A DNA stretch of 14,839 nucleotides from assembly GCA_043813875.1 (NCBI GenBank), contig JBDRKP010000026.1:1-14839 (forward strand). The letters are read 5' to 3'. The notes under the pieces are model-generated. The model did no database searches, had not been told where the DNA came from, and saw only the letters and a program-made list of their open reading frames with translations. Source of the stretch: an archaeon. GTDB lineage: Archaea; EX4484-52; B79-G9. Positions 1 to 13,648 of the stretch are shown one piece after another (within the stretch, counting starts at the first letter, position 1; each line of letters begins with the position of its first letter). Position numbers and translations under genes: made by a program.

Positions 1-192
1 CACTAGCCTGCCGGAATCTTAGGGCTCGGATATAATGACTATTACCTCCTTTATTTTTTTACCTGCTCATTCCAAACCGGCATCCTTCATTTCACCTCCT
101 GTGCATATCAAGTCCATAATAAGATTCAGTTTTTCGCATGGGATATCTTGCCTGTGCATAACAATCTAATGACTACAGGAGAATATATCAAC

Positions 193-3837: not shown

Positions 3838-3944
3838 TGGTCCGGATGAGATTTGAACTCACGACCCCCACGTGCCTGATATATTCTGAAAAGAACAGAA
3901 TCTTATTATCAGCGTGGTGCTCTAACCAGCTGAGCCACCGGACC
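3838..3944 (-). tRNA. trnI: tRNA-Ile(GAU) with 33-nt intron at canonical position 37/38 (intron 3874-3906)
   Basis: Acceptor GGTCCGG/CCGGACC plus A discriminator, D arm GCTC/GAGC, anticodon stem CCACG/CGTGG with GAT at 3910-3908, T arm GTGAG-TTCAAAT-CTCAT. BHB motif: CTGA pairs with intronic TCAG, with 3-nt bulges TA^A and GC^A. CCA is not encoded. Confidence 0.97.
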
Positions 3945-4004: not shown

Positions 4005-4227
4005 ATTGTTTTTAGATAAAAGAAAAGAACAAGAGTAATTTATACGCGATAATCATACAAAATCACCTGGCTGGGGCTAAAAATATGCGTTTTACCTTCA
4101 CATGATTACCTGTAGCACAAATATCGCATCACTCACATTATCATTGTATAATAATACTCGTAATCGAACTCTTCACGGCAATTGCCTGCAGCATTCTTAT
4201 CCATCTTCATCATCTCCATTGATTGTA

Positions 4228-4332
4228 TATAGTAAACGTCATAACTTTTTGGACTAATGACGTTTCCATATAGATTGATGTCTATCGGTTCATTGGTTAT
4301 ATTTGTCCAGCGAGTAACGACATCAACTATAG
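4228..4332. repeat. Bipartite hairpin element, family 1, 'empty' form (A arm + B arm)
   Basis: A: TATAG-T-AAACGTCAT...ATGACGTTT-CCATA (4228-4270). B: TATAG-A-TTGATGTC...GACATCAA-CTATA (4269-4331). Homologous to 8070-8153 and 8468-8530. Confidence 0.85.
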
Positions 4333-4709
4333 TAAAACAGGGGGTGCAAACTGATTCCCAAAAAGCATAAAAATGTATAACCCTGCTTTTTTCTGGAAAA
4401 CTCGAGCTCAGATGAATAGCAAGTCAATCAAGCTATGCAGCAGGCTCTAAAAGCAAGGGCTATTTTAAAATTACACGGTTTTAGAAAAGGAGTTCATGGG
4501 TCATCTGTTTTGTGGTATTTTTTGTAGAATCATCCCCGAATGGTATCCGCATTTATTAATCAGGGCAAAAGTCACTCTAGATGTCACATGTTTCATGGAT
4601 TTCATAACGACTTTTAGAGTGTTCATAATACCAATTAATATATTAGAACAAAAAGTATTTATATTTATCGCATATTTTCTTTTAAATGTATTTTAACAAT
4701 CCATCTCAT

Positions 4710-5945
4710 ATGGACGAGAATCTCTGTACGAGATGCAAGGGGAAAAACCTCTGCGGCAAGCCGTTTTGTACCATACTGTCAAATGTGGGGCAGTTCTCAA
4801 AAGTCATCGAGAACACGAGCGAAAATTTCACCGGCACAAGCCCGCCAAGCTGTTTCGTCGGCCGCACCGATTACCCCAGAGTCAACCTTAACATACTTAC
4901 GCCTTCATATGAAGACAAATATTCATGGACAAGGGACAGCCCCTCCTTCTGGTACAGGAAAGGATTCAAGATCCCGGACATCCTGAAAAGAAGGTCAGAC
5001 ATGGTCGCTGTCCGGTCAAAAGTCGATGTGAAGGCATCGGGCGACAGATTCCTTGATATCGCCCAGGAGATAGCTCAGGCAAAAAACCAGGTCGATGCAG
5101 AATTCTGGCTGAAAAAGAAACCGCGATTCAATATATCCTTCGACTCGAGGCTTGCGCCCATCGGCTCTCCTGCTGAGGTAGAAAAGGCGAAGCTTATTGG
5201 CAATGTATCTGTGTCGCGCCCTGTCGACAAGGCAGTGAGCGATACGGACCTGAAGGCCACCGGGGCGATAGAATATCTCCACCAAAAAAATATCGACGAG
5301 AACACAATAACAAAAATTTTGTCGCTCGGTCTCCTCGGCCTTGAGAAGAACAGGAAGCTTGTGCCCACAAGATGGTCAATAACCGCTGTTGATGACATGA
5401 TCTCAAAAAGACTTATTGAAAAGGCAAAAGATTTCAATGTAACAGGCAGCTATCAGGTATTTTCAAATACCTACCTTGGCAACCACTTCGAGATACTTAT
5501 CATACCGCGCGAATGGCAGTTCGAGGTGATAGAGACCAAGTTCGAGGGGAGCGTCTGGAACCCTGACGGTCAGTCGCCGGTGATATTTTCTGATTATGAA
5601 GGCTACTATGGCAGAAAGACTTATGCGTCAGAAGTCACAGGCGCATATTATTCGGCAAGGCTTGCGGCGCTCGAGTATCTTACAAAGATCAAAAAACAGG
5701 CTGCTGTCCTGTCGATAAGGGAGGTCTATCCTGAATATGATACGCCTATGGGGGTGTGGGTGATACGCGAGACTGTACGGGGCGCATTCCAGAACAGACC
5801 GACGAGCTTTGATGCGCTTGATGATGCGCTGGCTTTTATGAAAGGGCGCCTGAGGTTGCCGTTTGGGCGCTACATGAAAGAGAGCAAACTGCTTCTGAAC
5901 ATCAGGACCCAGAGTACCCTCATGAATTTTGTCGGGAAATGTTAA
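4710..5945 (+). CDS. nreA: Nre-family archaeal DNA repair protein (PCNA-interacting)
   Basis: N-terminal CxxCKGxxLCGxxxC, SPPSxFVGRxxYP, RKLVPTRWSITAVDD, GAYYSARLA, PMGVWVIRE and C-terminal PIP box QSTLMNF. TATA-like TTTTAAAT about 25 nt before ATG 4710. Confidence 0.93.
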   Translation: MDENLCTRCKGKNLCGKPFCTILSNVGQFSKVIENTSENFTGTSPPSCFVGRTDYPRVNLNILTPSYEDKYSWTRDSPSFWYRKGFKIPDILKRRSDMVAVRSKVDVKASGDRFLDIAQEIAQAKNQVDAEFWLKKKPRFNISFDSRLAPIGSPAEVEKAKLIGNVSVSRPVDKAVSDTDLKATGAIEYLHQKNIDENTITKILSLGLLGLEKNRKLVPTRWSITAVDDMISKRLIEKAKDFNVTGSYQVFSNTYLGNHFEILIIPREWQFEVIETKFEGSVWNPDGQSPVIFSDYEGYYGRKTYASEVTGAYYSARLAALEYLTKIKKQAAVLSIREVYPEYDTPMGVWVIRETVRGAFQNRPTSFDALDDALAFMKGRLRLPFGRYMKESKLLLNIRTQSTLMNFVGKC

Positions 5946-5974
5946 GAAGAAGAAAAACATGAAAAAACCAAAGC

Positions 5975-6079
5975 TATAGTCAAGGCACGAATTAATTGAG
6001 TAACGTGCCTTGCCATATACATCAAGGCATTTTGGTTTTTTGTTGAATTTTGTTCATTTATTTCATGCCTTGAGTATAG
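5975..6079. repeat. Bipartite hairpin element, family 2, 'empty' form
   Basis: A: TATAG-T-CAAGGCACG...CGTGCCTTG-CCATA (5975-6017). B: TATAC-A-TCAAGGCAT...ATGCCTTGA-GTATA (6016-6078). Homologous to 13411-13454 and 13570-13631. Confidence 0.85.
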
Positions 6080-6090
6080 TAAAAACTGAT

Positions 6091-6600
6091 TTGGACAAGC
6101 CAATTACAGAGCTTGTGAGCAAAAGTGACCACAGAACATTAGGGATCTGGGCAGCTGACTGTGCTGAGCGGGTATTACCCTACTTTGAAGAAAAATATCC
6201 TCTAGACAATCGTCCCCGAAAAGCTATAGAAGCACTCAGAACATGGGTTCAGACTGGCGTGTTTAAAATGGCTGATATACGAAAGAGTTCACTTACAGCT
6301 CATGCGGCAGCTCGTGAAGTGAAAGAAAATGATGATGCAGCCCGATCTGCTGCCCGTGCCGCAGGTCAAGCGGTGGCGACTGCGCATGTTCCTACTCATG
6401 CTATCGCAGCTGCGGTCTATGCAGCATCCGCGGTTCGCGATGCAACCGGCTCCATTGATGATACTACTAAGGAACGAGATTGGCAATACCAACACTTGCT
6501 CGATATGAACAAAACATTTGGTACAACTTATCCTACAAAGCAAATGCTCTGGAGGTCTCGGCAAAATCTCTCTTTGCCAGCATCAAAATTATATTTTTAA
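6091..6600 (+). CDS. Imm5-like 'putative immunity' helical protein
   Basis: DHRTLGIWAADCAERVLPYFE...RPRKAIEA...AARAAGQAVATAHVPTHA signature. TTG 6091 is the likely start. The ORF-track N-terminus (6010-6090) is largely translated hairpin element. Confidence 0.8.
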   Translation: MDKPITELVSKSDHRTLGIWAADCAERVLPYFEEKYPLDNRPRKAIEALRTWVQTGVFKMADIRKSSLTAHAAAREVKENDDAARSAARAAGQAVATAHVPTHAIAAAVYAASAVRDATGSIDDTTKERDWQYQHLLDMNKTFGTTYPTKQMLWRSRQNLSLPASKLYF

Positions 6601-6711
6601 CTCAGCTATATTCGTGATTAGTTTCGTGCCACCTATAATTCACTCGTTGATTCACTCGTTAGTTGCATCATAAATGAACATACCTTTATAACTGAGGCTG
6701 CATTTTAGATT

Positions 6712-7956
6712 ATGATGGAAAATACAACATCATTTAAACATCTGAACTTAATACCGGCGCTCGAAAAAGCACTGACCAAACAAGGATATACTGTACCCAC
6801 ACCCATACAATCAAAGTCAATCCCGGGCCTGTTGCAGGGCAGAGATCTGATCGGCATCGCGCAGACAGGCACTGGCAAGACGGCAGCATTCATATTGCCG
6901 ATACTGCAAAGGATGACCGAAAAACATCCACGGGAAATCAGGACCCTGGTACTTGCTCCCACGCGGGAACTTGCTGCACAGATCGGAGAAAGTTTTTCTG
7001 CATACGGTGAGTTTCTCAGATTCAAACACACAGTGATTTTTGGTGGAGTGAGCCAGGGACGGCAAGTCCAGGCCTTATCTGACGGTGTAGACATTCTTGT
7101 TGCAACACCCGGTCGGCTGCTTGATTTGATGAACCAGAGAAAACTCACACTGGATAAGATAGAATTTTTCGTATTGGATGAAGCAGACAGGATGCTTGAT
7201 ATGGGATTCATCCATGATATAACAAAAATAATCAGAAGATTACCGCATAAAAGACAATCATTTTTTTTCTCAGCTACAATGTCCCCGGAGATCAACAGGC
7301 TTGCAAAAACACTGCTCAATGATCCCATCCATGTCGAAGTCACAGCCCAGGCAACTACTGTTGAGCGCGTAAGACAATGCATCTATTTTGTTGACCAGTC
7401 CTCAAAAGAAAAATTATTGCTTGAACTCCTGAAACAGGAACATCTTACAAGTGTTCTGGTTTTCACCCGGACGAAACATCGGGCAAACAAAGTAGCATTA
7501 TTTCTTCGCAATAATAATATCTCCTCTGACGTGATCCATGGAAATAAATCACAAAACGCAAGAACCAAGGCAATCTACGATTTCAGAACCGGCAGAACCA
7601 AAGTATTGGTCGCGACCGATATTGCTGCGCGAGGGATAGATATTGATGATATTTCGCATGTCATTAATTTTGAACTCCCGAACGAACCAGAAAGCTATGT
7701 CCACAGGATCGGCAGGACTGCCCGGGCCGGAGCGGACGGTACAGCATTTTCATTCTGCTCAGCCGATGAAAGGGGTTATCTTAAGGATATAGAAAGATTG
7801 ATAAGACAAAAGATTGAAGTCATTGATCATAGATTTCATTCAGATGTCGCTCAAAACGCAACAGGTGTAGCAGCCAAATGCGCTGCAAAAAAGAGGAAAC
7901 CATTCTCTAAAAATTTCAATCATAACAATAGGCCTAGACGTGGTTTTAGAAGATGA
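6712..7956 (+). CDS. DEAD-box ATP-dependent RNA helicase, RhlE-like
   Basis: Q motif (GYTVPTPIQ), [48 protein letters not shown] and a basic tail. TATA-like CTTTATAA about 25 nt upstream. Confidence 0.95.
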
Positions 7957-8069
7957 ATGATGCCATATATATCGGGATTTGTTTTGTTATTGCTTCTTGG
8001 TTCCCCAGGATTCGCCTTCGGCACTTGATCATGTTGCAGTCCCGCCTTTGTGCTTGGAGATTTAGGAAG

Positions 8070-8547
8070 TATAGTAAACGCCATAACTTTTTCATGGCAT
8101 TTGCGTGCCAAGCTTTCGAGACAAGCTCAAAATAGACGAATGGCGTTTCCATACATGTAAAAATAGAGATGCTATTTTTACTGTCCAGCGAATCTTTGAG
8201 ATTCGCCCGGATCATTAAAAATCGTTTTACGATTTTTATGATTTCGAAAATTCATGGAAATTTATTGGTATATTGGAATATTTCCAAGCTTTTTCATCGC
8301 CACTATATGCGATGAAAATTTGTTCCAAATTTTCAATTTTCGAAATCACTAAAAATCCAATTCATATAGTGGATTTTTGTGATGACAAAAATCGAGGCTC
8401 TCGATTTTTAGTCATTCGAAATGGGTGAGCATTTTGAAAATCCAGCGAATCTTTGAGATTCGCCAAGATAGATTGACGTCTGTTGGTTTATTGGTTATAT
8501 TTGTCCAGCTATTAACGACGTCAACTATAGTTATGCGAGCAACTATA
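8070..8547. repeat. Bipartite hairpin element, family 1, 'filled' form with internal hairpin chain
   Basis: A arm 8070-8153, about 315 bp chain of 8 hairpin units (8153-8469), B arm 8468-8530 and mini-hairpin TATAGTT...AACTATA (8526-8547). Exact 24-bp direct repeat at 8184-8207 and 8441-8464. Confidence 0.85.
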
Positions 8548-8572
8548 TAATAAAATCTACCAAAAGTACAGT

Positions 8573-9640
8573 ATGGACCCGATTTATACATTCATCATTC
8601 CAATAATCGTAATCTTTTCCATATACTTCGGCGTGCATTACTATGTCTATTCACGGTTGCAGAAACTTTTTCCAAAAATCAGGATCAAGGGGGCAATCTG
8701 CATCCTGGCATTCATGCCCATCATATCAATGATGATTGGCCGGTCATACTATAACATATTCATAAGGATATTTGATGTAATATCATTCAGCTGGATAGGA
8801 ATAATCTTCTTCCTGATCCCGATACTGATCACATGGGAACTCCTGCGCTCCCAAATAAAGCTGGACCAGAAGACCTGGCAGAAAATCATACTGACTACAA
8901 CAATCATAATATCACTCACAGCAATCATCAACGGCCAATCAATCACCGTTAAAGAGATAGATATCCCTCTGTCTGGCCTCAAAGAGCCGCTGAAGATCGT
9001 GCAGCTTTCAGACATACACCTTGGAACCACCCACAACTCTGAATTCCTGGCAAAGATCGTAGAAAAGACCAATGAACAGAATCCTGACATCATCTTCATA
9101 ACAGGCGATCTCTTTGACGGTGCAGGCGGCACAAGAGAACACACGATCAAATCCCTGGATTCACTGGCTGCAATGACATATTTCGTAACAGGAAACCATG
9201 AGACCTATATCGGCATCGGCAAGATAGAAGAAATACTAAAAACAACAAACGTGACATTCTTAAGAGACCAATCTACAGAATACAAAGGACTGCAGATAAT
9301 CGGCATGGACAACCCTGCAAGAGACAACCAGTTCTCAAACCCCGACCTCGCGAAGATAGAAATAGACGGAACAAGACCGTCGATACTCCTTTACCACCAG
9401 CCGCTGGGAATGACTGAAGCGGATGAAAGCGGCATAGACCTTCAGCTATCCGGGCACACGCATAACGGCCAGATATTCCCGTTCAATCTCATACAAAAAC
9501 GCTTCTATCCCATGGTCAATGGACTCTACAAGATAGGAGATATGTACCTTTATGTCTCCCCCGGCACAGGGACATGGGGACCACCGATGCGTCTCGGCTC
9601 AAGAAATGAGATAACTGTCATAAACCTGTTCCCTGCCTGA
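8573..9640 (+). CDS. Membrane-anchored calcineurin-like metallophosphoesterase (YkuE/YaeI-like)
   Basis: N-terminal TM helices, then SDIH, GDLFD, GNHE, YHQP, GHTHNGQ and GTGTWGPPMR motifs. Confidence 0.92.
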   Translation: MDPIYTFIIPIIVIFSIYFGVHYYVYSRLQKLFPKIRIKGAICILAFMPIISMMIGRSYYNIFIRIFDVISFSWIGIIFFLIPILITWELLRSQIKLDQKTWQKIILTTTIIISLTAIINGQSITVKEIDIPLSGLKEPLKIVQLSDIHLGTTHNSEFLAKIVEKTNEQNPDIIFITGDLFDGAGGTREHTIKSLDSLAAMTYFVTGNHETYIGIGKIEEILKTTNVTFLRDQSTEYKGLQIIGMDNPARDNQFSNPDLAKIEIDGTRPSILLYHQPLGMTEADESGIDLQLSGHTHNGQIFPFNLIQKRFYPMVNGLYKIGDMYLYVSPGTGTWGPPMRLGSRNEITVINLFPA

Positions 9641-9683
9641 AGAAACCAGCAGTATATCCAACAATCCCAAAGATTCAGAGCAC

Positions 9684-9722
9684 AAAAGAAACCGGTGTTT
9701 CAAAAAAACACCCGATTCTTTC
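9684..9722. terminator. Imperfect stem-loop downstream of the metallophosphoesterase
   Basis: AAAAGAA-ACC-GGTGTTT-CAAAA-AAACACC-CGA-TTCTTTT. Confidence 0.4.
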
Positions 9723-9817
9723 ACCTCTTAATGCATTCAACCAGAGACCCATAACCTCAACTCTATACATTTATATTCCAGCAGCGCCAAATAATCATCA
9801 CAAGCAGGTGTAAAGAT

Positions 9818-10402
9818 ATGCTATTCGGGATAATATGCGAAACTGACGATAAGAAAGAACACAGGCTGATATTCACATCAGATGTCTCTGCATTGCATTT
9901 CAAGGCAGGGACGACATTCTCAAAAGAGGATTTCAAAGACATGCTGGAACACATAGACGCAGACTGCAAGATGTTCCGTGGAAATGCAAGGACAAGCCAT
10001 TGCACAGAAAATATAGCCCCGAAAGAAAAAACAGGTCCAAGATTCATACTGTTCCGCCATCTTGAGAAGAAAAAAAGAGAGACTGAGGTCAAAGTAAACA
10101 GGATAGACCTCAACGAGATCAACAAAAAAAATGAAACGCTGATAAAAGAGATGCTAGATTCGGAATGGAATAGCGTGAGGATAGTCCAATCATATTCTCT
10201 TTCCACATCCGATTCAGTCGAGGAGTTCTATGGAAAAAAAGATGAGAAACTTCCAAAAAAGGAAGATGAGGGGAAGAACACAATAGCTGAAACAAAAAAA
10301 TCCAATGCTGTAGGCAATGGTATCGACAAAACTGCGCCGGACTTTGGAGGCGCGATGAAAAAAATATATGATAAACTGAAAACAGTTAATCGAAGAAACT
10401 AG
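9818..10402 (+). CDS. Hypothetical protein (194 aa, charged C-terminal half)
   Basis: Long ORF with upstream AGGTG and plausible codon usage. No family recognised. Confidence 0.7.
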   Translation: MLFGIICETDDKKEHRLIFTSDVSALHFKAGTTFSKEDFKDMLEHIDADCKMFRGNARTSHCTENIAPKEKTGPRFILFRHLEKKKRETEVKVNRIDLNEINKKNETLIKEMLDSEWNSVRIVQSYSLSTSDSVEEFYGKKDEKLPKKEDEGKNTIAETKKSNAVGNGIDKTAPDFGGAMKKIYDKLKTVNRRN

Positions 10403-10465
10403 AAACCAGGATGGTCAAGAATAAATTATCACGCAATAAAATAAGTATCCTGAAAGGCAATGACT

Positions 10466-10678
10466 TCAATGCTGCCTCATAATCAATTCGATATCTTCCT
10501 TCTTTATGGTCTTTCGGCCTGCATGTCTTGAAACAGCTACCGCTTCCTTGGCAAGATCTGCTGCAATCTCTTCAATCACATCCCTCAAGGCCTCAGCGCC
10601 GCTTTCAGAAACCCGATCAGCGCCGTTGTTCCTCAATATCCTGTCAAAAGGAGCAGATGTCATCGTATGTTCAATCAT
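10466..10678 (-). CDS. Archaeal histone (HMfA/HMfB family)
   Basis: APFDRILRNNGADRVS...HAGRKTIKKEDIEL histone-fold signature, 70 aa. Confidence 0.95.
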   Translation of the reverse strand: MIEHTMTSAPFDRILRNNGADRVSESGAEALRDVIEEIAADLAKEAVAVSRHAGRKTIKKEDIELIMRQH

Positions 10679-10739
10679 ATTATCGCCAGACTATTGTTTG
10701 GCGATGAATATTAAATATTTATTGTATTTAAGTATATTT

Positions 10740-11228
10740 ATGGAAAAACTCTATATTCTGGACTCTACTGTCTTCCTCGAGACAGAAACTGGCTTCCTTG
10801 CTGGCAAAGCATGCGCAACAGTCTATGACGTGGCTGAAGAGATGAAAAGCACAAAGGCGTCAATCGAATTCGACAAGATGGTCCGCCTCGGACTAGAGAT
10901 AATAGAGCCGGAAAAAACATACATTGATGAAGCGGAAAAAACAGCAAAATCCACAAACGACAAGGTATCCTGCGCAGACAAAAAAGTCGTGGCGCTGGCG
11001 CTCCATTTCAAAGCGAAAGGCAAAGATGTCGCCGTCGTCTCTGATGATTATGGCGTCCAGAATCTCTGCAAGCACTTGAACCTCGAGATAGTCCCACAGT
11101 CCCAGAAAGCCATAAGGCAAAAACTGACATGGCTCAAGAAGTGCAGCGCATGCGGCAAACGGGTCGAATCGTTCGAAGACATCTGCCCTGTCTGCGGCTC
11201 GCCGCTGAAATATGTGCCGAAGCGATGA
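10740..11228 (+). CDS. nob1: Nob1-like PIN-domain endoribonuclease with C-terminal zinc ribbon
   Basis: ILDST, ADKKVVALA, SDDYGVQN PIN motifs and CSAC...CPVCG. True start is ATG 10740. The upstream ORF extension is antisense to the histone. Confidence 0.88.
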   Translation: MEKLYILDSTVFLETETGFLAGKACATVYDVAEEMKSTKASIEFDKMVRLGLEIIEPEKTYIDEAEKTAKSTNDKVSCADKKVVALALHFKAKGKDVAVVSDDYGVQNLCKHLNLEIVPQSQKAIRQKLTWLKKCSACGKRVESFEDICPVCGSPLKYVPKR

Positions 11229-11323
11229 GTTTAAGGTCAAAAGTCAGTATAAGTCCATATATTTGATTTTTGGATTACTAACAAAAAGAGGGGCATGTCC
11301 CACGGACAGATTTTTGATTTGAA

Positions 11324-12328
11324 CTAACCAGGTAAAATTTCTCTCAAAAAACCATTCGGGAAAAAATCAAATTTATAGTCTTTTATTGTATTATCGAACT
11401 CTATTGATTTAATCTCATCACTAAAATCCTCTCGGAGCATATACATAATATCTTGGAGTTCTTGAACAACCTTTACCTGCATATGGAAGATTATATCTGC
11501 TGCTCCAAATCCCAGCATTATATAATTAGTTTGTTTAAAACTTTTTAGTCTATTGATAAGGGCCTTTATTCTTTCATCAGAACGGCTGCTTAGCTTTATT
11601 TTAATGATATACCAATGAAGCCCCAGTTTTTCTGTAAACATATTTGGTCTGAAATGTTGTATCAATCCTGATTTTATCATCTTTTTCATGCGATAATAAA
11701 TAGTCATTCTATTTTCTTTCAATTCTTCTTCTAGTAAAGCCAATGATTTCCGCCCATCTGTAGAGAGCGCCGAAAGAATTTTTAAATCGAGATTATCTGT
11801 TTTATAGGGTTGAATTTTAATAGAAGGGAACTGAAAAGCATATTTTTCAAAAAGTACATTGTATGGTAAGAAAATATTTTCAGATATGAAAAATATTGAA
11901 TAATGATCAATTAAAAAAGGAAAGTTTGTTTCGAGTTTACTAATTATTTGATTTAGATGAAGTGTGTCTTTATACTGAAAACTGGCGGCAAAATCCCAAC
12001 TACCTGCAAATTCGAGAATTTCTACAACAAATGGGCTTTCAATCAAATAAGAGATAAATTGTTTTATTTTTATTTTATCTAGGTTCATAAATTTGAAGAA
12101 AACAAGGGATGAAGACCATCCAAGCTTCTTAATATCTATTATTGTTGTGATGTTGGTCATAATCCTTTCTTTAATTAACTTATCGATTCGGTACCGAACA
12201 ACATCTTTAGACATATGGCTATTTTTTGAGATTGTTGAGTATGGCGCCCTTCCATTTTTAAATAGTTCTACAAATATTTTTTGATCTTTTGAATCAAGTG
12301 TCAATAGATTTTCGGTGTATTTTCTCAT
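11324..12328 (-). CDS. Lrp/AsnC-family regulator with two tandem HTH + RAM units
   Basis: LDSKDQKIFVELFKNGRAPYSTI and DNLDLKILSALSTDGRKSLA HTH starts, each followed by a RAM-like domain (GSWD, GAADI). AT-rich. Confidence 0.9.
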   Translation of the reverse strand: MRKYTENLLTLDSKDQKIFVELFKNGRAPYSTISKNSHMSKDVVRYRIDKLIKERIMTNITTIIDIKKLGWSSSLVFFKFMNLDKIKIKQFISYLIESPFVVEILEFAGSWDFAASFQYKDTLHLNQIISKLETNFPFLIDHYSIFFISENIFLPYNVLFEKYAFQFPSIKIQPYKTDNLDLKILSALSTDGRKSLALLEEELKENRMTIYYRMKKMIKSGLIQHFRPNMFTEKLGLHWYIIKIKLSSRSDERIKALINRLKSFKQTNYIMLGFGAADIIFHMQVKVVQELQDIMYMLREDFSDEIKSIEFDNTIKDYKFDFFPNGFLREILPG

Positions 12329-12422
12329 ATTACTTAAAATGAACGAATATACATATAAATCTTTTTATTAAGCGTAAAATTGAATGAGAATCTACATTAT
12401 ATGCAAAAGACATATATGTGTG

Positions 12423-13298
12423 ATGGAGTTCAACAAAATCCCAGCTATTGATTTGAATGAGACGCAACTTAAAACGGGCCATTGGAATGTAATTGATAAA
12501 ATCTCAAAGAAGAGGATAAATCTTACGACAAAGACTGAAAAATTAACAAATGGAATAGTCGATATTTCTAGTTCTCTGACAAAAAGTTCTTCTGGCAGCA
12601 CGCTTACAAAGTCAAAAATGCTTGAATTGGAAGCACTAATATTGAAAGAGAAACTAAATATAAGTGAAGAGAAAGCCATATTAAGTTATGATGAAGTTAA
12701 AGGGGCGTTACCACGATTACAGCATTTCTATGAAGTTTTTGAAACGAACCTAGAAGAAGAATTCGTAAATGATTTTTTGAATGGTAGAAAAGAGCTTAGA
12801 GATTATTTACTATATAATAGATTTGTTAAACTAATAACGAACGAAAAGAATCTAGCAAAAATTTCAAAAAAAGATTGTGTCCTTTTCATTGGTAGTGGAC
12901 CACTTCCAATAACCGCTATTCTCTTAAATAAGTTTACAAAATGCTCTGTAGACTGTTATGACAAAAATAACATATTCGCAAACATATCCAAAAGAGTGAT
13001 AGAAAATCTGTCACTTTCCGACAAAATCAAGATTTATAATGGAAAAGGAGAAGACCTTTCTGGAAAGAAGTATTCCGTAATTATAATCGCACTCTTAGCC
13101 AAACCTAAAGATAAAATATTGCAGAACATATGGAATGAATCAATAAAAGGCACCAAAGTAATTTGTAGAACAACAGATGGTATACGTGAAGCATTTTATG
13201 AAAAAACTACCCCAAATCTGTTTATAAAATACACCTGTACAAATAAGGTGTTTGCAAAACATGATCAGACAATATCATCGGCTTTATTAATAAAATAA
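12423..13298 (+). CDS. Nicotianamine synthase-family SAM-dependent enzyme
   Basis: FIGSGPLPITAILL motif, helical N-domain FY...LEEE...LYNRFVKLITNE, IALLAKPK and RTTDGIREAFY. ATG 12423 is preferred (12384 possible). Confidence 0.88.
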   Translation: MEFNKIPAIDLNETQLKTGHWNVIDKISKKRINLTTKTEKLTNGIVDISSSLTKSSSGSTLTKSKMLELEALILKEKLNISEEKAILSYDEVKGALPRLQHFYEVFETNLEEEFVNDFLNGRKELRDYLLYNRFVKLITNEKNLAKISKKDCVLFIGSGPLPITAILLNKFTKCSVDCYDKNNIFANISKRVIENLSLSDKIKIYNGKGEDLSGKKYSVIIIALLAKPKDKILQNIWNESIKGTKVICRTTDGIREAFYEKTTPNLFIKYTCTNKVFAKHDQTISSALLIK

Positions 13299-13410
13299 TT
13301 CGATTGTATAAAAATAGCTCTCTTGTGACTTTTTCGCGTATGAATCGACTTTTGCTTTGCAAAAGGAATATAACCTGTGCTTTTAAGACTCCACTTCATT
13401 ATGCCTAAAT

Positions 13411-13632
13411 TATGGTCAAGGCACGAATAAATTGAGTATTTATGCCTTGTCATATCCGAAAAATTGCAATGCAATTTTTGGATTTCGAAAATTTATTCTA
13501 AATTTTCAATTTTAGAAATTCGAAATGGGTGTGCATTTCGAAAATCCAGCAAATTGTCAATTTGCTCGGATAGATGAAAGCAAGTTGATTTCTTGTTGAA
13601 ATGCGGTCATTTATTTCTTGCTTTCACTATAG
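13411..13632. repeat. Bipartite hairpin element, family 2, 'filled' form
   Basis: A: TATGG-T-CAAGGCA...TGCCTTG-TCATA (13411-13454). 116-bp insert TCCGA...TCGGA (13455-13570), homologous to the 8153-8469 chain. B: ATAG-A-TGAAAGCAA...TTGCTTTCA-CTATA (13570-13631). Confidence 0.85.
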
Positions 13633-13648
13633 TCCGATGGACTTACTT

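Follow-up and report, generated by a model that had tools for sequence, protein, structure and literature searches.

What kind of element underlies the four pairs of bulged hairpins that are spaced along contig JBDRKP010000026.1 of the archaeal assembly GCA_043813875.1? The contig, which was analysed at its full length of 14,839 nucleotides (the window; contig C26), belongs to a 1.64-Mb metagenome-assembled genome (MAG), here called G000, that consists of 90 contigs and is 91.5% complete. The hairpin pairs had been described in a first-pass annotation as a candidate system of gene capture analogous to attC or REP sequences. As explained below, the four loci are likely to be copies of a non-autonomous DNA transposon, i.e., members of a family of MITEs (miniature inverted-repeat transposable elements) of a DPANN lineage, moved by an IS630/Tc1-mariner-type DDE transposase. 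Comparisons were drawn with a set of 42 genomes of the phylum, 7 congeners among them (41 genomes for BLAST); the records of close relatives carry the label 'Candidatus Nanohalarchaeota archaeon'. The features at issue are the following:

4228-4333, + strand: locus 1, compact hairpin pair of family 1; element 4230-4329 (100 nt), TA at 4228-4229 and 4330-4331
5975-6080, + strand: locus 2, compact hairpin pair of family 2; element 5977-6076, TA at 5975-5976 and 6077-6078
8070-8531, + strand: locus 3, long, family 1; element 8072-8527 (456 nt)
8530-8547, + strand: the B arm's right half from another, "host" element; abuts locus 3, and the left half of the host is missing across locus 3
13411-13633, + strand: locus 4, family 2, with extra hairpins between the arms; element 13413-13629 (217 nt)

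Build, copy number and spread of the elements

At each locus an A unit precedes a B unit, with an overlap of one TA (at locus 1 the A unit reaches 4270 and the B unit begins at 4268). The A unit is composed of TATAG (TATGG at locus 4), one unpaired base, a 9-bp stem, a loop and the return stem with CCATA (TCATA at locus 4), and the B unit of TATAG or TATAC (GATAG in the module-bearing loci 3 and 4), one unpaired base, a stem of 8-9 bp, a long loop and the return stem with CTATA or GTATA. Flanking TAs included, loci 1 and 2 measure 106 nt, locus 3 measures 462 nt and locus 4 measures 223 nt. The bulge lies on the left arm at all four loci and the stems differ between the two families. The grammar proposed at first pass, with A before B, a left-arm bulge and two stem families, is confirmed by the sequence and by a covariance model, R1, which was run over the whole window with filters off and matched the four loci only (119.9 bits at locus 1), with no other match above E = 1. 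When folded as single-stranded DNA, loci 1 and 2 form exactly two hairpins from either strand, with z-scores of -3.7 and -5.9, respectively, for the + strand and -2.8 and -6.3 for the - strand. The open reading frames (ORFs) that overlap the elements in the window are short antisense artefacts.

Loci 3 and 4 depart from the compact form through additional hairpins. Locus 3 has two of these within the loop of its A arm (about 8093-8140) and a run of palindromic modules at 8156-8467, which are common to other copies of both families and are followed by the B arm (8468-8527); locus 4 opens with TGGT in place of TAGT and lies 11 nt from the called end (13649) of the ORF for a TraB protein. Throughout the genome such internal hairpins recur in a loose order that families 1 and 2 have in common: usually an A5-stem-T5 palindrome, an optional pair of TTCGAAA-type palindromes and, last, a palindrome of the form TCCAGC...GCCCGGA or TCCTATGAATC. 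The small palindromes stacked in the A loop or in the space separating the units can total up to some 380 nt. Each module either lies in the A loop or fits precisely into the junction of CCATA with TAG, and none is accompanied by a duplication of its own. The modules may have arisen by exchange between copies or by template switching. The idea that they are independent elements was discarded, as 50 of their 53 BLAST matches fall inside A-B elements. Two shape-conserved hairpins with optional hairpin modules make an unusual build for a MITE.

Iterated nhmmer searches on both strands of the G000 contigs found 41 A1, 48 B1, 18 A2 and 21 B2 arms. Without exception an A arm precedes a B arm on the same strand, A1 being combined with B1 only and A2 with B2 only, across gaps of 3-10, about 50-61, 97-123, about 182-257 or 368-381 nt. 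Arms in such numbers and in so regular an order are far beyond chance. The arms make up 56 A+B pairs and 13 apparent solos; on re-reading the 10 solo B arms, six proved to have an A arm with a variant stem and two a truncated A arm, and two were ambiguous. The covariance-model scan that had been suggested at first pass gave 71 matches to R1 in G000 (E <= 0.01; long elements can match twice), and we put the number of copies in this MAG at about 65-70. At E <= 1e-4, R1 has matches in 20 of the phylum set's 42 genomes: all 7 congeners (10-74 matches each), 4/4 and 2/4 genomes of two sister genera, and 4/8, 1/1 and 1/2 genomes of three genera in other families. Locus 1 alone, used as a BLAST query, has matches in 16 of 41 genomes. 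The copies range from 100 to 473 nt, are built of stacked palindromes, contain no transposase gene and are almost all intergenic. The loci therefore belong to a dispersed repeat family, and a cassette system specific to the window is ruled out. An explanation by an existing Rfam family, which was also to be looked for, did not emerge: the Rfam scan at E <= 1 returned a tRNA and a chance snoRNA match only, and nothing at the four loci.

The two stem families do not exhaust the diversity in G000, where more of them were seen in places at which contigs end and in elements that host nested insertions. As separate observations, there is a third A-B family, several hundred nt long, and a non-coding repeat of about 190 nt with a direct repeat of the GTTTAATACCCCGCAGC type; the places concerned are the starts of C17/C61 with the ends of C28/C87, the ends of C53/C61/C52/C64, and C13:19321-19793, a 473-nt element in which the 190-nt repeat is also nested.

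Insertion at TA and the structure of the ends

That these are mobile elements, as was surmised at first pass, is seen from filled and empty sites. Five insertions could be compared, three of them across genomes and two as nested insertions, and four of the five show a clean duplication of a TA target; the fifth, at locus 1, is consistent with one. The site of locus 1 is empty in G001 (contig C111) and G002 (contig C126), where it is surrounded by the same tRNA and Nre genes and reads ...CATATAGTAC.... In G003 a filled site reads TCA TA [TTGT...AACTA] TA ATCCC, for which the empty counterpart on contig C23 of G000 is TCA TA ATCCC, and in G002 another reads TTTTTAAA TA [TAGT...ACTA] TA CTTTTCC, for which contig C13 of G000 has TTTTTAAATACTTTGCC. 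The nested insertions involve a host element that is present intact twice on contig C34 (...TTTTTGTCTAAA TA GTTATGCGAGC...). It is interrupted by a family-1 element on C42 and by a family-2 element in the opposite orientation on C6, both at one and the same TA of the host loop, which is duplicated in each case. The 18 nt at window positions 8530-8547 are part of this host: they also flank the nested insertions (C42:3703 and C6:6178) and occur in both intact hosts on C34.

The wider sample agrees with these individual cases. For the 40 of the 56 pairs in which the arm matches reach both ends of the model, the flank is TA on the left in 39 and on the right in all 40; beyond the TA, richness in A+T is all that the flanks have in common. 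On C53 a single TA is shared by two tandem elements. Copies 99% identical to locus 2 lie in unrelated contexts at C42:31796-31900 and C79:4386-4489, and their movement must therefore be recent. The search of sequencing reads for empty sites or circular junctions that was proposed at first pass found neither: in four sets of public DNA reads, the contigs over the window were short and of low depth and yielded joints between different repeat copies only. RNA reads were not among the public sets, which gave no information on expression. Small size without a transposase of their own, terminal inverted repeats, filled and empty sites, and many dispersed copies are nevertheless what is seen in these elements, and these are the features of MITEs.

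The inverted repeats at the ends are imperfect and about 27 nt long. Over 30 nt and 49 copies, the left end is on average 58.8% identical to the reverse complement of the right end, as against 37.4% for a direct-orientation control that paired the left end with the start of the B unit. Matching positions cluster at 1-4, over part of the stem and, within the loop, at 15-17 and 21-25; in the window copies the matches amount to 20/34 positions for family 1 and 23/34 for family 2. Each end is an outer repeat together with an inner complementary copy of it, which is why the element folds into two separate hairpins, and the "bulge" is a difference of one base in length between the outer and the inner copy. 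A copy may accordingly be written as TA [TAGT...ACTA] TA, the terminal repeats each being folded on the inner copy; the transposase would insert the element at a TA and duplicate it. The alternative of an element GT...AC with duplication of TA or TATA was rejected, as it predicts empty sites that are 2-4 nt too long.

Stem maintenance and the candidate enzyme

The proposal that the shape of the hairpins is conserved while their sequence is free was upheld in an alignment of 52 copies from 10 genomes. With the copies aligned to R1, and thus fitted to the model, 97.2% of 1190 cells in 23 base pairs are paired, and 17 of the 23 pairs have changed on both sides (204 cells). None of 500 shuffles reached the observed covariation score, and sliding the partner columns by 1-3 positions lowered the pairing to 30-43%. 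A separate RNAalifold run on 12 copies returned identical helices, with 13 of the 23 pairs compensated. The stems occur in 22 A-stem and 24 B-stem haplotypes and 37 combinations, with almost no intermediates. Watson-Crick pairs occupy 1149 cells and the rest are G.T (8), A.C (11) and other mismatches (22). Since G.T is matched by its mirror image A.C, wobble pairs are not in excess and no preference for one of the strands is seen. Strong covariation without an excess of G.T implies that the palindromes are maintained in DNA, and selection on an RNA is unlikely. Template switching in quasi-palindromes can correct one arm by the other; the covariation fits such arm-to-arm correction, or a requirement that the DNA form a hairpin or cruciform, and not an RNA helix. 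One or the other of these is probably what keeps the stems complementary.

The same data bear on the notion that the copies are kept as regulatory modules, i.e., as terminators, insulators, promoters or processed RNA hairpins that have been domesticated and are not purely selfish. The copies lie almost entirely between genes and T runs are present in both loops of the sense strand; furthermore, transcripts with stable stem-loops are produced from Correia elements and other bacterial MITEs, according to the relevant section of one account (PMC2229807). In G000, 19 of the 26 pairs that lie between tandem genes are co-oriented with the genes and 7 are opposite (two-sided binomial p = 0.029), a modest bias that may come from the sense-strand T runs and that, like the other orientation counts, is based on crude ORF calls; the remaining pairs lie between divergent genes (19), between convergent genes (9) or at contig ends (2). 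Against a regulatory role stand the absence of a wobble excess among the 1190 cells, which argues against selection for an RNA helix, the distances from the copies to the next start codon, which have no peak, and the lack of a match to an Rfam family. We regard this explanation as unlikely.

For the favoured reading, transposition by an enzyme of the IS630/Tc1-mariner type, a candidate resides in the same genome. An insertion sequence (IS) of the IS630 family is present on contig C62 at ~11787-12995, where two overlapping frames score 71.7 and 148.9 bits with NCBIfam model NF033545 (cut-off 100). The ends of this IS recur with 100% identity at the ends of contigs C82, C47, C46 and C63, from which it follows that there are at least 4-5 copies, collapsed by the assembler. 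The resident IS630 sits in CTAG, and the sole copy seen whole, that on C62, has TA on both sides, consistent with TA duplication. In a congener an IS630 reads TA [TAGCAA...TTGCTA] TA, with TAG just inside the TA, the register being that of the MITE. The last 141 nt of C62 are identical to window positions 1-141, and one IS630 copy therefore ends at base 3 of the window:

1-5, + strand: last 3 nt of the multi-copy IS630 (1-3) and its TA (4-5), as joined on the overlapping contig C62; not part of the MITEs

The earlier statement that the window contains no enzyme is thus literally true, but on an overlapping contig an IS630 copy runs up to base 3 of the window. Contig C5 also ends in the first 141 nt of the window, without the IS, and is an alternative join to C62 (at C62:11787-13130); the difference between C62 and C5 at window positions 1-141 reflects either a branch in the assembly graph or an insertion polymorphism. 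Most likely, we infer, a transposase of this type, encoded elsewhere in the genome, would cut and paste the element in trans.

Several observations weigh against this reading. No autonomous copy with MITE ends was found in G000: in the search for one, all A arms paired with a B arm within 600 nt except three that are truncated, of which the one found at C12:135 is broken up by a further TA-inserting element, the interior of which is absent from the bin. The mariner domain PF01359 was matched neither in G000 nor in the control genomes, so that its absence here carries no weight. The ends of 13 IS630-type (DDE_3) loci gave no match to the MITE ends at <=4 mismatches in 16 nt. Only the left end of family 2 resembles the resident IS630, at 18 of 34 positions, a value attained in 23-30 of 2000 shuffles; this is one comparison out of eight, and the remaining six are at chance level. 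DDE_3 domains are found in 4 of 20 genomes with the MITE and in 4 of 22 without it, a co-occurrence that says little in fragmented MAGs, where multi-copy ISs often go unassembled. The first-pass suggestion that copies might stand beside a tyrosine recombinase, a Y1-HUH or an IS630 gene was not supported, in that none lies within 1.5 kb of any of the 3 tyrosine-recombinase (PF00589), 11 Y1 and 13 DDE_3 loci. In addition, a DDE enzyme that binds terminal inverted repeats does not explain the covariation of inner and outer arms, simple insertion at TA does not explain modules between CCATA and TAG that have no duplication of their own, and a palindromic duplication of 2 nt is formally equivalent to what an element with TA at its own ends would leave on inserting beside a TA.

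A different kind of family is also conceivable, in which neither the wobble-free hairpins with their free stems nor the modules added without duplication would be by-products, and in which the element would be read by its structure and would be more than a passenger of IS630. It would use a folded or single-stranded intermediate and an enzyme or route that is new for TA-duplicating elements, acquire its modules by template switching at hairpin junctions, and drive the shuffling of gene order in these reduced genomes through its copies. We think it improbable that the family is of this kind.

Movement by a Y1-HUH enzyme, as for the miniature IS200/IS605 derivatives known as PATEs or for REP-like units with a RAYT, would require insertion beside TA without true duplication, and recognition through the bulged subterminal hairpins. 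A flank that is a palindrome of 2 nt is formally compatible with this, as are subterminal hairpins at both ends, each with a conserved bulge of one base on the 5' arm and both bulges on one strand, a G-C pair beside the bulge that is kept in 50 of 52 copies, and stems that are free in sequence and kept in shape. A fragment of a Y1_Tnp gene, the only one in G000, is moreover present at C84:3171-3335. However, the hairpin adjoining this fragment is G+C-rich and unrelated, no TnpB-type domain (PF07282) was found in G000, the 11 Y1 loci have no MITE copy within 1.5 kb, and Y1_Tnp is found in 5 of 20 MITE-bearing and 3 of 22 MITE-free genomes (again a comparison of MAGs that says little). The ends are inverted repeats that extend into the loops, and the mismatches are symmetric, with no strand favoured. 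To our knowledge, HUH elements have no such terminal inverted repeats. An origin of this type is quite unlikely.

G000 is rich in mobile DNA for its genome size. The TA-inserting element mentioned above (its end reads GGGCGAGCCTAGC...) interrupts an A-arm loop at C12:1-158 and is also found at C28:1-150, and at least four other multi-copy repeats with IS-like ends, one with an IS3-like first ORF, break the assembly; contigs that end at such repeats include C43/C57/C69/C75/C83, C23/C32/C52, C18/C19/C31 and C11/C35/C71.

Gene borders and relation to known systems

The gene layout of the window was taken from Pfam matches, and its tRNA from the Rfam scan:

left of the tRNA, - strand: H+-pyrophosphatase, the leftmost named gene
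3838-3944, - strand: tRNA
4686-5945, between loci 1 and 2: Nre
between locus 2 and the helicase: Imm5-like protein
6712-7956, followed by locus 3: DEAD-box helicase
8573-9640, after locus 3: metallophosphoesterase
9818-10402, between the metallophosphoesterase and PIN_6: unnamed ORF
between ORF 9818-10402 and Lrp/AsnC: PIN_6 protein
between PIN_6 and NAS, - strand: Lrp/AsnC
12384-13298, followed by locus 4: nicotianamine-synthase-like protein (NAS)
right of locus 4, called ORF end 13649, - strand: TraB

The tRNA, at 107 nt presumably intron-bearing, lies directly upstream of the pyrophosphatase gene, whose longest ORF call wrongly extends across it. Window positions 4133-4219 (- strand) hold a micro-ORF of 28 aa, MEMMKMDKNAAGNCREEFDYEYYYTMIM, with counterparts near the end of C5 and in G001 (L014) and G002 (L015). 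As read from the DNA by eye, the counterparts all finish in EEYDFEYYY plus 1-4 residues, and GGAGG, resembling a ribosome-binding site, precedes those in G001, G002 and C5 and not the window copy; they may, to judge from sequence, form a conserved family of tiny peptides.

The first-pass annotation placed the four loci at the borders of accessory genes, which holds for three of them. Locus 1 is a plain insertion into conserved synteny, the tRNA-Nre spacers of G001 and G002 being collinear with the window. Locus 2 begins 30 nt past the Nre stop codon. In G001 and G005, Nre is followed by no element, but by a small ORF, the ortholog of window 9818-10402 (46-47% identity), and then by PIN_6; the contig of G002 ends within the small ORF. 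From this order it follows that the segment ~5946-9700, with locus 2 at its left edge and the Imm5-like, helicase and metallophosphoesterase genes and locus 3 within it, is extra in G000. The helicase in G001 and G002 adjoins genes that in G000 are found on C67, and it is followed by a family-2 copy in reverse orientation in G002 and by none in G001. Since the left half of the host element is missing to the left of locus 3, the left end of that locus marks a rearrangement or deletion junction. Similarly, PIN_6 is adjacent to TraB in G004, so that 11229-13640, which holds Lrp, NAS and locus 4, is extra in G000. Locus 4 lies at the right edge of this block and the left edge has no copy, nor was a decayed one detected there. 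An element beside TraB in G005 was considered as an ortholog of locus 4 and dropped, as it sits at the other end of TraB.

Three of the four loci thus border on a gene block that is absent from congeners or located elsewhere in them, but the claim that the elements bracket such blocks fails: R1, run with filters off, found no copy at the far edges (about 9640-9800 and 11229-11330). Co-orientation, likewise, is correct for the four loci of the window and does not extend to the genome, in which copies occur in both orientations. The border positions are better explained by ectopic recombination among dispersed copies, or by a preference for spacers that were variable already, than by gene capture, against which the unbracketed blocks and the plain insertion of locus 1 also speak. 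If the dispersed copies serve as substrates of rearrangement, this would explain why several of them lie at the edges of variable blocks. An attC-like system, in which a tyrosine recombinase would recombine the folded hairpins and capture the genes between them, could be argued from the bulged hairpins, the co-orientation within the window and the three loci at block edges, but it is contradicted by the duplicated TA and the plain empty sites, by the mixed orientations, by the three tyrosine-recombinase loci that have no copy nearby, by the bare far edges and by the housekeeping type of the genes concerned (e.g., the DEAD-box helicase, which is located elsewhere in congeners), and we give it almost no credence. 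The duplicated TA, the inverted repeats of ~27 nt and the mixed orientation speak in the same way against the attC/REP-like mechanism proposed at first pass.

What the window reveals is an ordinary kind of selfish DNA that fills many of the intergenic gaps in a tiny archaeon and its relatives. For the annotation of these MAGs, the family accounts for numerous long spacers between genes that look 'empty', and for numerous contig breaks. It might also mark points of rearrangement in small, symbiont-type archaeal genomes, and it provides a clean natural data set on the upkeep of perfect palindromes at the DNA level. Full-text literature searches turned up no description of the present family; the supplements of the MITE census, in which archaeal MITE sequences are listed, may contain it.

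Short palindromes with a conserved flank, free stems, mosaic arrays and an unpaired base are features that the family has in common with REP/BIME sequences with RAYT and with the PATEs of IS200/IS605. It differs from these in that TA is duplicated, the ends are inverted repeats and no matching Y1 enzyme was found. Closer likenesses are to be found among bacterial MITEs. Correia (NEMIS) elements of Neisseria have TA at their ends, duplicate their target, carry terminal inverted repeats of about 24-27 bp and occur in a short form of about 107 bp and a long form with an internal block of about 50 bp, as outlined in the part of PMC2229807 that deals with them. They resemble the present family in being small, non-coding, mostly intergenic and of high copy number in a small genome, with a transposase that has not been identified; the forms of 100 nt and of 55 nt more correspond to theirs, a likeness of description and not of compared sequences. 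In contrast to Correia elements, the host here is an archaeon, each end folds into a hairpin of its own, without pairing between the ends, and the stems vary freely by compensatory changes, with palindromic modules that can stack to a length of about 380 nt. RUP of Streptococcus pneumoniae, about 107 bp long, inserts at TA, is proposed to be moved in trans by a transposase of the IS630 family and is found inserted in other mobile elements, in the outline given by the same source (PMC2229807). TA insertion and presence within other mobile elements thus link the present family to RUP and other IS630-derived MITEs, with the difference that the ends of RUP, in that outline, closely match IS630-Spn1 and no IS with matching ends was found here.

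Among archaea, MITEs are known from Sulfolobus and the haloarchaea, e.g., SM1-SM4 of Sulfolobus solfataricus, in the portion of PMC10969869 that treats them, and they are dense in some DPANN genomes, according to the corresponding portion of PMC11602168. The elements described here are, like SM1-SM4 as presented there, non-autonomous archaeal elements with tens of copies per genome. They belong to a different lineage from SM1-SM4, from which they are set apart by description and not by sequence comparison. We know of no two-hairpin modular build in SM1-SM4. Placed beside these systems, the elements of the window constitute a well-defined new family of MITEs, and neither a new kind of system nor a new system of gene capture.

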